Shown: in pieces, positions 8,559-15,119 of the stretch
Numbering within the stretch: position 1 is the stretch's first letter
Layout of the letters: every line of letters begins with the position of its first letter
DNA from: an uncultured Methanosarcinales archaeon
Lineage (GTDB): Archaea; Nanobdellota; Nanobdellia; Woesearchaeales; DATGWN01
Direction of reading: 5' to 3'
DNA: 25,559 nt
NCBI GenBank assembly: GCA_964525725.1
Contig: CAZGJY010000001.1
Coordinates: forward strand, 1 to 25,559
Made by a program: the position numbers and the translations under genes
Notes under the pieces: model-generated
Told to the model about the DNA's origin: nothing
The model's database searches: none
What the model saw: only the letters and a program-made list of their open reading frames with translations

Positions 8559-9002
8559 TTATTTTTGTTGCACGCTTTTTCTAAGTGCCGCTTCGTGATT
8601 TTCACGTTTCGTTTCAGCTAGCTCGACATCGACAATTAAAAGAGCCAAATTTTCTTGAGACCATTCAACATTAGTTGCACCAAGGGCTCCAAGTAATTTC
8701 TCAATTCGTTCACGCTCTTTCTTCTCGACATATACAACGAGAAAGGGAAGTTTATTGGCAAACTTTCCAATCTGAGCACCATCCATGACATGCTTGAAAT
8801 AATGAACTTCACCGGTGATGAAAAGTGGTTTTAATTTTTCTGCCAGTGCAAGAATTGAGGGATATGCTGCGCTGACTATGTATTTTCCGTATGGATGAAA
8901 ACTTTAGAGTGGATTATCTCGGGAATAGTGGATAAAACTTATTCCTTGTTGCCACACATCAATTTTTGTGGAGCGTTGTTTGAAATCCCAAAACCAGCCC
9001 AT
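8559..9002 (-). pseudogene. 148-codon ORF interrupted by one in-frame TAA (8904-8906)
   Basis: My translation: MGWFWDFKQRSTKIDVWQQGISFIHYSRDNPL*SFHPYGKYIVSAAYPSILALAEKLKPLFITGEVHYFKHVMDGAQ..., continuing into the listed 8559..8786 ORF. TATA-like ATTAATAA ends 23 nt before the ATG at 9002. Confidence 0.6.
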
Positions 9003-9092: not shown

Positions 9093-9100
9093 TTTATAAA
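9093..9100 (+). promoter_or_regulatory. TATA-like box of the membrane-protein cluster
   Basis: TTTATAAA ends 24 nt before the ATG at 9125. Confidence 0.6.
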
Positions 9101-9124: not shown

Positions 9125-9706
9125 ATGGTATCAGCATTCGGAAATGCAATCGGTTTCTTGGCGAATATCGGACTCTACGACGTCATCCTGCCGTTTCTCT
9201 TGACTTTTACAATCATCTATGCAATCCTAGATAAAACAAAGATTTTGGGCATGGATGACTTTGATGGCAAGAAATATCCGAAGAAAAATCTCAATGCACT
9301 TGTCGCGTTCTGCATCGGTTTCTTGGTCATCGCGTCAAAGAACCTTGTCTCGCTCATCAATACGACTCTCGCACAGATTGTTGTCTTGTTCATGATTTGC
9401 GTATTCTACCTTGCGCTCGTCGGTGTTTTCTACAAGGACAACGTCGAAGACCAATTCAGCAAGAGCTGGAAGACATTCTTCATCGTCACTTTGCTCATCG
9501 CAATCATCCTCATCTTCGCGAACGCGATCACGCTCGCTAACGGCGACAGCGTCCTTGTCTTTATTTACAATCAGCTTGCATTCAATATCGATAGTGCGAT
9601 CGTTTCGACGATTGTCCTCATCGCGCTCATCTTGGGCGCAATGTTCTATGTCGTCACACCGCCAAAGCCGAGCGGTGCAGGAAAAGAGGGAGGAGATAAA
9701 AAATGA
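9125..9706 (+). CDS. Multi-pass membrane protein, paralog 1 (about 5 TM, function unknown)
   Basis: DVILPFLLTFTIIYAILDKTKILG...KKNLNALVAFCIGF; five hydrophobic segments. Confidence 0.9.
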   Translation: MVSAFGNAIGFLANIGLYDVILPFLLTFTIIYAILDKTKILGMDDFDGKKYPKKNLNALVAFCIGFLVIASKNLVSLINTTLAQIVVLFMICVFYLALVGVFYKDNVEDQFSKSWKTFFIVTLLIAIILIFANAITLANGDSVLVFIYNQLAFNIDSAIVSTIVLIALILGAMFYVVTPPKPSGAGKEGGDKK

Positions 9707-10272
9707 GCGTTCTAGATCAAGGATTCCAATCACTGATACAAGGAGATGTATTCGTCATATTGCTCCCATTCCTGCTCATCTTTGCAGTTGTGTTCGGTAT
9801 TTTTACAAAGGTAAAGATTTTCGCTGAAGGCGAGAACAAGAAGTTTGCGACAATCATCGCACTCGTCATGGGTCTTACTGCCGTATTCCAGCACTACGTC
9901 AAAGTCGGTGGTGAGAGCTATGATATCGTCAACATCATCAACGGCGCGTTGCCACAGGTCGCGCTTGTCCTTGTCGCAATCGTGATGCTCTTCCTCATCC
10001 TCGGATTGTTCGGCAAAGTGCCAGCGATCGGCGAGAACAAAGCATCAGTTTGGATCGCAGGCGTTGCGATACTAGCAGTCATCTACATTTTTGGATCATC
10101 TGCAGGTCTTGGCTGGTGGAACTTGCCGTATTGGCTGCAAGACTACCAAATTTGGTCGCTCGTCGTAGTCATCCTCGTCTTTGCGCTCATCATCAGATAT
10201 ATCACTGGTGACGACAAGCCGAAAGATGAAACAAAGACGACGCTTGCAGAATTCTCCAAGCTCTTCAAGTAA
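9703..10272 (+). CDS. Multi-pass membrane protein, paralog 2
   Basis: DVFVILLPFLLIFAVVFGIFTKVKIF...NKKFATIIALVMG. ATGA overlap with paralog 1 and a GGAGG SD. Confidence 0.9.
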   Translation: MSVLDQGFQSLIQGDVFVILLPFLLIFAVVFGIFTKVKIFAEGENKKFATIIALVMGLTAVFQHYVKVGGESYDIVNIINGALPQVALVLVAIVMLFLILGLFGKVPAIGENKASVWIAGVAILAVIYIFGSSAGLGWWNLPYWLQDYQIWSLVVVILVFALIIRYITGDDKPKDETKTTLAEFSKLFK

Positions 10273-10280
10273 GGTAATAC

Positions 10281-10304
10281 TTTTATTTTTTTATTGTTAT
10301 AAAC
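10281..10304 (+). promoter_or_regulatory. T-rich terminator-like tract followed by TATA-like GTTATAAAC
   Basis: TTTTATTTTTTTATTG (10281-10296) follows paralog 2; GTTATAAAC (10296-10304) precedes paralog 3. Confidence 0.4.
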
Positions 10305-10335
10305 ACTACAGCAAAAATAGCGGCAGACACTTTCC

Positions 10336-10908
10336 ATGGCAACTACATTCATCGACACCAGTCTTCTGACAGGAATGCAATTCATCTTCTCATTCATCCT
10401 AGTGTGGATCATTGTGTACTCCGTCCTCGGCTTCACACAGCTTTTCAAAACGAATCAAGGTCTGAGAGGACTTCTTGCGATCATGGTTGCGCTGCTCACG
10501 CTCGCATCGCCAAAAGTGCTCATGGTCGTCTCACTCATCGTACCATGGTTCTCAATACTCTTTGTCTTCATCGCAATGCTGCTTCTTGGCGTCATGCTCT
10601 TTGGCATCGAAGGAAAGACAATCACGAAATGGGTCGAAGAGAAAGACAACGTCACTGTCAATTTCATCATCGTCGTTGCAGGAATCATCTTTATTGCAGG
10701 TCTCGGTTATGTTTTCTTCAGCGGTGGACCAACGACGCAGCAGAATGTGACGCAGACGACAATCACGTCAGCAGGCACAGTAACGACAGCAGATGTCGGC
10801 GGCACAGGTGCTGGCGCATTGATGGCAACGCTCTTCCATCCTAAAGTCCTCGGAGCAATATTCGTCCTGCTGCTGGGTCTCTTCACCATCTTGCTCTTAG
10901 TCAAATGA
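10336..10908 (+). CDS. Multi-pass membrane protein, paralog 3, with Thr/Gly-rich loop
   Basis: FIFSFILVWIIVYSVLGFTQLF...GLRGLLAIMVALL. Loop SGGPTTQQNVTQTTITSAGT contains an N-x-T sequon. Confidence 0.88.
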   Translation: MATTFIDTSLLTGMQFIFSFILVWIIVYSVLGFTQLFKTNQGLRGLLAIMVALLTLASPKVLMVVSLIVPWFSILFVFIAMLLLGVMLFGIEGKTITKWVEEKDNVTVNFIIVVAGIIFIAGLGYVFFSGGPTTQQNVTQTTITSAGTVTTADVGGTGAGALMATLFHPKVLGAIFVLLLGLFTILLLVK

Positions 10909-11453
10909 ACCAATTCAGCAAGCGTCGATCTGTGCGCGTGCGCAAATCATCGCAATCACCAGCACTGCATCTCGCAGTCAGTGGAACACCTGGGACTGGA
11001 AAGACGACGCTCGCCAAACGGATATCTAAACTTTTTGACATACAATACATTTCTCTTATTGATTTGATTCTTGCGAATAAACTGCAAGAACGATATGATC
11101 GACGCGCAAAGACATACGATGTCTCTGTTCCAAAGGTTGAGCGATTTTTGCAGAAGAATCTTGATCGCTCTGATTCCTATGTCATTGATTCGCATCTCGG
11201 ACAACTGCTGCCGAAAGAAATCGTTGATTCAGTCGCTGTCACAACATGCAAGCTTTCTGTGCTCGATAAACGATTGCGCAGACGCAGATACAGCGCGCAG
11301 AAGAGGCGAGATAATCTTGATGCAGAGATATTCCAAGTGTGTTACACTGAATCGATCAATAACAAGAAAAAAACAATAACGATAGATTGCACAAAAAAAA
11401 TGAGCGACGTTGCGCTCAAAGCGCGTCTGCGTCCTCTGCTTCGTCGTCGCTAG
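10905..11453 (+). CDS. AK6/Fap7-type (hCINAP-like) adenylate kinase / ATPase
   Basis: SGTPGTGKTT Walker A, VIDSHL, LDKRLRRRRYSAQKRRDNLDAEI lid region. ATGA overlap with paralog 3. Confidence 0.85.
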   Translation: MNQFSKRRSVRVRKSSQSPALHLAVSGTPGTGKTTLAKRISKLFDIQYISLIDLILANKLQERYDRRAKTYDVSVPKVERFLQKNLDRSDSYVIDSHLGQLLPKEIVDSVAVTTCKLSVLDKRLRRRRYSAQKRRDNLDAEIFQVCYTESINNKKKTITIDCTKKMSDVALKARLRPLLRRR

Positions 11454-14246: not shown

Positions 14247-15119
14247 ATGGTATTGCAAACAGTCAGCGGTTTTTTCATCGGACCGCTCTACATTTATTTC
14301 TATGGCATCGTGTATGCTGTTGCTGCGCTTTGTTTGTATTGGTTCCTCTCGAAAAAGAAAGATGCAATCGGAATCACGCAACGCGCTGTTGATGAGTTGA
14401 TCATCGCGGTGCTCATCGGTCTCATCGTCGGCGGGCGCATCTTCCATTTCCTCATCAATGATCCCGGCGTTTTCATCAGGGATCCACTGGAACTGTTTCT
14501 GATCCGCAACGGCGGAATGTCGTTCTTCGGAGCGTTGATCGGTATTCTATGTGGCGTCGGGATCTGGTATCGTATTCAGCTCAAACTGCAAGGTGGAAAT
14601 AATATTGTTGCAAACAGATTGGAGATGAAACGGAAAATGCTGATGATCCTCGACTTGGGAAGTCTTGTCGTCTGCATTGCACTCATCTTCGGTCGGATCG
14701 CGAATTTCCTCAATCAAGAATTGGTCGGACGGATCGCTGACCCAAAACTTGTGCCGTGGTGCGTCAATTTCGCGACGGCGAGCGGTTGCCGTCATCCGTA
14801 TCAATTGTATGCAGCTGTGTCACATCTGCTGCTTGCGGTTGTTTTACTTGTCCTTTATTTTCGCAACGCAAGAACTGGGACAATCATCTATACGTTTTTG
14901 TTCGGCTACGGCGTGCTGCGCTTTGTGACGGATTTCTGGCGAGAGGATCCAATCGTCGCGCTTGGTCTGACGGCGTGGCAGTTTTTTGCGATAGTTCTTG
15001 CCATTGTCGGTGGCTATTTACTTGTTCGCCATCTGCGACAAGGTAATCATAGTGAGAATGAGTCACAGACTCAAGCAAATGTGCAACAGGTACATAAACA
15101 TCATAAACGCAAAGATTAA
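14247..15119 (+). CDS. lgt: Prolipoprotein diacylglyceryl transferase (bacterial-type Lgt)
   Basis: FYG, VGGRIF, GGMSFFGA, GRIANFLNQELVGR, RHPYQLY, YGVLRFVTDFWR, with multiple TM segments. Confidence 0.9.
   Translation: MVLQTVSGFFIGPLYIYFYGIVYAVAALCLYWFLSKKKDAIGITQRAVDELIIAVLIGLIVGGRIFHFLINDPGVFIRDPLELFLIRNGGMSFFGALIGILCGVGIWYRIQLKLQGGNNIVANRLEMKRKMLMILDLGSLVVCIALIFGRIANFLNQELVGRIADPKLVPWCVNFATASGCRHPYQLYAAVSHLLLAVVLLVLYFRNARTGTIIYTFLFGYGVLRFVTDFWREDPIVALGLTAWQFFAIVLAIVGGYLLVRHLRQGNHSENESQTQANVQQVHKHHKRKD

Follow-up and report, generated by a model that had tools for sequence, protein, structure and literature searches.

The 25,559-nucleotide window analysed here (the whole of the DNA stretch presented, contig CAZGJY010000001.1 of assembly GCA_964525725.1) comes from an archaeon placed in the Woesearchaeales and carries, on its forward strand, three tandem genes for small membrane proteins, which we call M1, M2 and M3. 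A first-pass annotation, made by a model from the letters of the sequence and a list of open reading frames (ORFs), had described three tandem genes of about 190 amino acids (aa) with about five transmembrane segments each, and this description holds: the proteins measure 193, 189 and 190 aa, with five segments apiece by hydropathy. The genes and their immediate features are listed below by window position.

9093-9099, plus strand: TATA-like box TTTATAA, about 26 nucleotides (nt) 5' of the M1 ATG (read from the sequence)
9125-9706, plus strand: M1, five-helix membrane protein of 193 aa (ORF list)
9703-10272, plus strand: M2, paralog of 189 aa (ORF list)
10273-10335, plus strand: M2-M3 spacer of 63 nt, with a T-run and TTATAAA at 10297-10303
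10336-10908, plus strand: M3, paralog of 190 aa with the greatest divergence (ORF list)
10905-11453, plus strand: Fap7/AK6-like P-loop kinase (PF13238, expect value E = 7.6e-19)

The ATGA overlap by which M1 and M2 had been called coupled is real (9703-9706), and a Shine-Dalgarno-like GAGGAG lies 8-13 nt 5' of the M2 start. M3 and the kinase gene are joined by a second ATGA overlap at 10905-10908, and the TTTATAA at 9093-9099 is a putative promoter of M1. The promoter-like box that had been assigned to M3 is also present, as TTATAAA 33 nt 5' of the M3 ATG; it lies in a spacer that is unusually long here (63 nt versus roughly 1-20 nt in relatives) and is a feature of this lineage rather than of the whole family. 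In this lineage M3 and its overlapping kinase gene may form a separate transcription unit.

Paralogy, distribution and topology of the three proteins

By sequence and profile comparison, M1, M2 and M3 are true paralogs of one family. BLASTP yielded E = 6e-7 for M1-M2, 0.002 for M1-M3 and 0.14 for M2-M3, and a profile built from 42 M1 homologs matched M2 of the same genome, positions 17-187 of 190 being covered (E = 9.8e-14). When profiles of the three ortholog groups, with all three genes taken from 25 related loci, were compared by hhalign, M1 and M2 aligned over nearly their full length (probability 99.9%, E = 1.6e-33, columns 3-186), M1 and M3 over columns 16-110 (98.9%, E = 1.4e-17) and M2 and M3 over columns 18-134 (99.2%, E = 2.1e-19). 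The mutual similarity claimed at first reading is therefore beyond chance, with the relatedness of M3 to the other two demonstrable in its N-terminal half only (about 90-110 columns). Thirty-two complete triplets (96 proteins) were placed in a maximum-likelihood tree, in which the proteins at position 3 formed a single clade (support 100/98) and those at positions 1 and 2 were each near-monophyletic, with other orders included. The tree places the triplication before the split of the class into orders, and the position of a gene defines its orthology group. Conservation differs among the groups, with mean pairwise identities across 25 orthologs of 50% for M1, the best conserved of the three, 42.5% for M2 and 33% for M3.

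No characterised family could be assigned to these proteins, in agreement with the first reading. Pfam and NCBIfam scans of M1, M2 and M3 produced nothing above threshold; the best Pfam match, to DUF4153 (E = 0.0025), fell short of its cut-off. Of 53 family members, at most six matched any one Pfam family, and the sub-threshold matches were scattered over unrelated membrane families. A profile search of the PDB with M1 reached E = 0.76 at best, and a Foldseek search of the PDB with the AlphaFold2 (AF2) model of M1 reached E = 2.4, with no known transporter fold. M1 had 66 homologs and M2 231, and among the roughly 300 listed for the family none bore an informative name. By these sequence and model searches the family has no structural relative in the libraries searched and is undescribed. 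We also considered the five-helix prepilin peptidases (Peptidase_A24) as an identity and rejected it, as there was no PF01478 match at E <= 1 and no second aspartate to complete the catalytic pair of such enzymes, one member of which belongs to a GxGD motif; M1 and M2 have one conserved aspartate (D19) and M3 has none.

The family is nearly universal in the class Nanoarchaeia. In a sample of 301 genomes drawn from the phylum of the window, all belonging to that single class, the M1 profile matched 297 genomes and 222 of 224 genera, mostly with two or three matches per genome. The statement in the first-pass annotation that such tandem genes recur in DPANN genomes is thus borne out for Nanoarchaeia, the class that the searches reached. 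When 1.84 billion representatives were searched with a combined M1 and M2 profile, 2,933 clusters (50% identity) matched, the best 150 of which were inspected. The homologs listed for M1 and M2, and those of a genome-collection scan, carried the source names Woesearchaeota, Nanoarchaeota, Nanoarchaeia and Pacearchaeota, plus evident mislabels. The best 80 loci from that scan, made with the combined profile (hereafter the 80 named loci) all came from Nanoarchaeia. Public records bearing the triplet include some labelled 'uncultured Methanosarcinales archaeon', 'Acidobacteriota bacterium' and 'Candidatus Binatia bacterium' (L080, L085, L088 and others; P0009; L116), and these labels are probably defaults or the result of mis-binning. 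Profiling of copy number and synteny, which the first-pass annotation had proposed, revealed conserved clustering in the order M1-M2-M3 when carried out within Nanoarchaeia: the complete ordered triplet was present in 25 of 32 loci, in most of a set of 42 loci described below and in 74 of the 80 named loci.

By prediction, the proteins lie almost wholly within the membrane. Hydropathy averaged over the family resolves five hydrophobic segments in each of M1, M2 and M3, and the AF2 model of M1 (predicted local distance difference test score, pLDDT, 77.7; predicted template modelling score, pTM, 0.48) likewise has five; in this model an amphipathic N-terminal helix comes before helix 1, loop 1 contains a short hairpin, and more helices follow. 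The signature of M1 reads G16-x-Y-D-V-I-L-P-F-L-L ... K-T-K-[IV]-[LF]-G ... KKNLNA, with G16, L22, P23, F24, G42 and V75 invariant, and the best-conserved regions are helix 1, which contains the invariant proline of LPFLL, and the lysine-rich loop 1. The charge bias of the loops (lysine plus arginine counts in inside versus outside loops of 12.2 versus 2.8 in M1, 8.1 versus 1.6 in M2 and 5.1 versus 3.8 in M3) indicates a topology with the N-terminus outside and the C-terminus inside, M3 being the weakest case. Loop 1, where the soluble parts of M1 and M2 are best conserved, is accordingly predicted to be cytoplasmic. In a natural M1-M2 fusion from the representative library (P0202, 365 aa), a 20-residue linker runs from the C-terminal tail of M1, predicted to be cytoplasmic, to the N-terminus of M2, predicted to lie outside. 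This fusion conflicts with the proposed topology, as a tail on the inside is connected to an N-terminus on the outside, unless it is an assembly artefact or the amphipathic N-terminal helix behaves otherwise. The outside loop of M3 (residues 124-173) is rich in serine, threonine, glycine and acidic residues and ends in HPKVLG ahead of the last helix; across 25 orthologs it varies in sequence and in length (24-67 aa), with HPKxLG conserved at its end. The threonine-rich loop and its sequon (NVT) noted at first reading are indeed present in M3, but an N-glycosylation sequon occurs in only 9 of the 25 orthologs; it belongs to this lineage and is not conserved across the family.

A type-IV-filament-type motor beside the triplet in most relatives

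The surroundings of the triplet were mapped in a first sample of 42 loci, each covering 18 kb around the genes and drawn from 40 genomes chosen over families and orders plus two loci from contig look-ups and the window itself, with the neighbouring ORFs clustered. The canonical order is M1, M2 and M3 in one direction, two genes for coiled-coil proteins (cc1 and cc2) in the opposite direction, and then an ATPase gene and the gene for a large membrane protein, here called the partner, in the direction of the triplet. The commonest neighbours were the following.

cc1: about 215 aa; small N-terminal helical domain, P/Q-rich linker and C-terminal coiled coil; 28 of 42 loci
cc2: about 149 aa; coiled coil; 25 of 42 loci
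ATPase: about 760 aa; T2SSE-type; 25 of 42 loci
Partner: about 720 aa; polytopic membrane protein; 22 of 42 loci
Translin: next commonest neighbour; 16 of 42 loci
Aminoacyl-tRNA synthetase: after translin; 14 of 42 loci

The 80 named loci served as a second sample. There, cc1 was adjacent to the triplet in 55 of the 63 loci having at least 1.5 kb of downstream flank, and where at least 6.5 kb was available cc1 was found in 41 of 48 loci, cc2 in 41 and the ATPase in 38. In this second sample, where the flank sufficed, these three genes accompany the triplet in 79-87% of loci, versus at most 38% for any other gene in the first sample, and the strongest and most widely conserved neighbours of the triplet are cc1, cc2 and the type-IV-filament-type ATPase, which in relatives lies 1.4 kb 3' of the triplet. 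M1 and the partner gene were located within 10 kb of each other on the same contig in 66 of 118 genomes (a hand count from match positions), where about 2% would be expected by chance for a 1.1-Mb genome; as many of the assemblies are fragmented, 66 of 118 is a lower bound.

The ATPase, judged by its sequence matches, is of the type-IV-filament kind. It matched PF00437 at E = 1.2e-14, the NCBIfam family FlaI at 2e-35 and, in PDB profile searches, Archaeoglobus GspE2 (2oap, 7e-35), CpaF (4e-30) and FlaI (8e-22), and it has an N-terminal extension, some 300 residues long, that is specific to the family. The partner gene always follows the ATPase gene in the 42-locus sample and is single-copy in 299 of 301 genomes, with E near 1e-290. 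The M profiles themselves showed no relationship by hhalign to those of the ATPase, the partner and the coiled-coil proteins, the best result being a 14% probability between M1 and the partner over 46 hydrophobic columns. In one family the triplet, and in some other orders the partner gene, is followed by pilin-like ORFs, recognised by pattern only, so the machine is not clearly pilin-less.

In the genome of the window the triplet stands apart from this motor, all parts of which are present on other contigs: cc2, the ATPase and the partner at C2:1885-7599 (the ATPase at C2:2960-5308) and cc1 at the end of C35, with the triplet on C1, the window. The gene 5' of the triplet here encodes aIF2-gamma, and the order aIF2-gamma, M1-M2-M3, kinase, including the overlap of M3 with the kinase gene, recurs in a second genus of the same family (G125). 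Because this other genus has the identical order, the detachment is a family-level rearrangement. A functional link between the triplet and the Fap7-like kinase was considered and rejected, the adjacency being limited to the family of the window: the kinase was the downstream neighbour in none of the 41 other mapped loci, where cc1 is usual, as it is in the 80 named loci. The kinase is probably not part of the triplet module.

The same genome encodes further filament-related genes. A Peptidase_A24 prepilin peptidase (C20:2912-3280) scored above the Pfam cut-off (E = 1.5e-10), and the Pfam family Pilin_N had no match in the genome. ORFs with KRG- or KKA-type leaders followed by a hydrophobic helix (a match by pattern only) occur on C5 and C35; C5 holds a second pilus locus, which carries ORFs with class-III-signal-like N-termini. 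At C35:4643-8222, cc1 is preceded by three ORFs with class-III-signal-like N-termini and a Nudix-like gene, an arrangement not seen in the other sampled loci. Finally, C58:28-5863 presents an archaellum-like row of a pair of small N-anchored proteins, a KaiC-type ATPase resembling FlaH, a FlaI-like ATPase of 557 aa and a protein resembling FlaJ, whose match to Pfam T2SSF (E = 1.7e-4) falls short of the family cut-off; judged from this row, this Woesearchaeota-type archaeon may be motile.

The remaining genes of the window are of a housekeeping character (IF-2B-like, Trm5/Tyw2, DUF357, Lgt, phosphoglycerate kinase, thymidylate kinase and DHH phosphoesterase). The window contains no secretion ATPase, transporter ATPase, binding protein or other transporter component, in keeping with the earlier remark that no transporter ATPase or binding-protein gene is adjacent to the triplet. 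The prolipoprotein diacylglyceryl transferase Lgt (14247-15119, PF01790, E = 4.7e-44) is of bacterial type, and a homolog lies in the matching neighbourhood of a related genus (L160:9634-10581). A 75-aa ORF on the minus strand just 5' of M1 (8559-8786) had no Pfam match.

A proposed accessory membrane module and its alternatives

Conservation of the triplet in a fixed order favours a single membrane complex in which the three proteins are non-redundant subunits, because all three genes are kept, their order has been fixed since before the orders diverged and they are tightly spaced or overlapping. The first-pass annotation, which had likewise inferred a hetero-oligomeric membrane complex, had gone further and proposed a strong candidate for an undescribed system. 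The family is indeed unnamed and the order of the triplet fixed; however, as most relatives have beside the triplet motor genes that the window does not reveal, an accessory module of a machine of known type is a better reading than a free-standing system. Our best explanation, which we hold with moderate confidence and would call an even bet, is that M1-M3 form a heteromeric accessory membrane module of a type-IV-filament-like machine of Nanoarchaeia. M1, M2 and M3 would assemble into one complex with about 15 helices per M1:M2:M3 unit, which would serve a core machine made of the FlaI/CpaF-type ATPase with its long N-terminal extension, the partner of about 720 aa and the two coiled-coil proteins of the cytoplasm. 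The docking site for cytoplasmic partners would be loop 1 of M1 and M2, and the variable loop of M3 would face outward. In the family of the window, the triplet has been relocated beside the genes for aIF2-gamma and the Fap7-like kinase, with the motor genes kept elsewhere in the genome.

Several observations weigh against this explanation. The triplet is a separate transcription unit, convergent with the coiled-coil genes, and roughly 20-45% of genomes, that of the window among them, have it apart from the motor without having lost it. The presence or absence of genes cannot test the coupling, because the triplet and the motor set are both near-universal, and synteny among related genomes is partly inherited rather than selected. 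One very small genome (G059, 0.49 Mb) keeps M homologs although its partner is barely recognisable (E = 3e-36), and in non-Woesearchaeales orders a PRC-barrel gene 5' of M1 provides another possible associate. Nor do searches clearly identify the partner as a platform protein of the T2SSF/TadC type: its matches to Pfam T2SSF were weak (4 of 15 members, E = 0.011-0.06), PDB sequences gave no match, hhalign against the FlaJ of the same genome found nothing, and Foldseek with its AF2 model (pLDDT 79.9) returned nothing significant, a PilC model appearing at E = 0.46.

Part of this evidence would fit a membrane complex with an essential role of its own, for example as a channel, a small-solute or lipid transporter or an envelope scaffold, that lies near the motor through inherited gene order or shared regulation. 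Such a complex would have its own convergently arranged transcription unit, could be detached without loss, as has happened in the family of the window and in other families, would be near-universal in tiny genomes in the manner of a housekeeping function and would persist in the 0.49-Mb genome despite a highly divergent motor partner. We nevertheless regard it as somewhat unlikely, as conservation beside the triplet across orders is by far strongest for cc1, cc2 and the ATPase, a transporter family, energising subunit or binding protein was never associated with the triplet, and the predicted AF2 monomer resembles no known transporter fold. The PRC-barrel gene points in another direction, in which the triplet would anchor a division or envelope-organising scaffold, composed of a CdpB-type PRC-barrel protein and the coiled-coil proteins, and would not be part of a filament motor. 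The FtsZ-based division of archaea involves PRC-barrel proteins. A gene of about 95 aa, on the strand of M1 and 30-40 nt 5' of it, was present in 6 of the 12 loci sampled from other orders and in 6 of the 80 named loci (L058:7676-7963; also L059, L060, L061, L067 and L068; L124, L136, L137, L150, L152 and L157). Its profile matches PDB entries 8qzo and 8onw at E = 2.5e-15 and Pfam PRC matches 7 of 7 members (best E = 4.6e-08), which suggests a PRC-M1-M2-M3 operon in these non-Woesearchaeales orders and a possible tie to the archaeal division apparatus. We regard a scaffold of this kind as improbable: the gene is beside the triplet in none of 30 loci from the order Woesearchaeales, was not found in the genome of the window at E <= 1e-3 and is far rarer as a neighbour than cc1, cc2 and the ATPase, and no ftsZ or sepF turned up in the sampled neighbourhoods, although no search was aimed at them.

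A further alternative would make M1 and M2 the substrates of the motor, as unconventional pilin- or pseudopilin-like subunits cut after Gly16 by a prepilin peptidase. The frequent absence of pilin genes beside the motor would then be explained, because M1 and M2 would themselves be what it handles. The invariant glycine with the conserved hydrophobic helix that comes after it (G-[LVI]-[YTF]-D-[VAI]-[ILV]-L-P-F-L-L) and the Peptidase_A24 gene on C20 are consistent with this, and no pilins cognate to the nanoarchaeal ATPase clade could be found by Makarova, Koonin and Albers (2016, PMC4858521). Yet the leader is acidic and amphipathic with a hydrophobic residue at -2 in place of lysine or arginine, four further membrane helices take the place of a globular domain, M3 lacks the G-x-x-D motif, and other ORFs with class-III-signal-like N-termini are available, on C5 and C35 in this genome and directly after the partner or the triplet elsewhere. 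We consider pilin-like subunits highly improbable.

The accessory-module explanation also admits a bolder form, which seems to us distinctly unlikely, in which the seven genes (M1-M3, cc1, cc2, the enlarged ATPase and the partner) would constitute an envelope machine specific to Nanoarchaeia, derived from a type IV filament motor and no longer an ordinary pilus, with the M1:M2:M3 complex of about 15 helices as a conduit or anchor at the site of host contact, for attachment or uptake by these host-dependent cells.

Nanoarchaeia (Woesearchaeota, Pacearchaeota and Nanoarchaeota), whose genomes measure about 1 Mb, are believed to lead a life attached to other cells, and the near-universal seven-gene set, with its highly conserved ATPase, is a prime candidate for their attachment or uptake biology. 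The M family comprises at least 2,900 clusters, and naming it would improve the annotation of thousands of metagenome-assembled genomes; its link to the motor is a concrete hypothesis for the cultivated Nanoarchaeota co-cultures.

Comparison with known systems

Small membrane proteins encoded with the motor are familiar from other type IV filament machines, where PilN/PilO, GspL/GspM, the archaellum proteins FlaF/FlaG and FlaX, several of them paralogous pairs, scaffold or anchor the core of ATPase and platform. M1-M3 resemble these in size and in being encoded with a motor. In contrast to proteins of the PilN/PilO type, which are bitopic with one helix and a soluble domain, M1-M3 are almost wholly embedded in the membrane and have no sequence or fold match to them. 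The CdpB-type PRC-barrel proteins (PDB 8qzo and 8onw), whose homolog lies directly 5' of M1 in several non-Woesearchaeales orders, are neighbours of M1-M3 and not relatives, and are missing from this position in the order of the window.

Among archaeal type IV pili, the closest likeness is to the nanoarchaeal branch near subclade 4F of clade 4 in the classification of Makarova et al. (2016, PMC4858521). The ATPase belongs to the same family, and a coiled-coil accessory protein is described there for related halobacterial loci. In the passages of that work devoted to accessory membrane proteins, none resembles M1-M3.

The most direct counterpart is the set of CCP (coiled-coil protein)/CpaF/TadC loci reported as conserved in cluster-2 DPANN archaea, including Woesearchaeota, Pacearchaeota and Nanoarchaeota (Hamm et al. 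2024, PMC11291902). The genes 3' of the triplet in relatives, which encode a pair of coiled-coil proteins, an ATPase of the CpaF/FlaI type and, at the position of TadC, a large polytopic protein, correspond to these loci, and the lineages match; the neighbouring locus of the triplet in relatives appears to be the CCP/CpaF/TadC locus of that study. Nanohaloarchaeota, Aenigmatarchaeota and Undinarchaeota carry such a locus as well. Our findings differ in that the five-helix triplet is not mentioned in the main text of Hamm et al. and in that, in the genome of the window, the triplet lies apart from the locus. The locus itself was already known, and what is new is the triplet and its synteny with a locus of the CCP/CpaF/TadC type.

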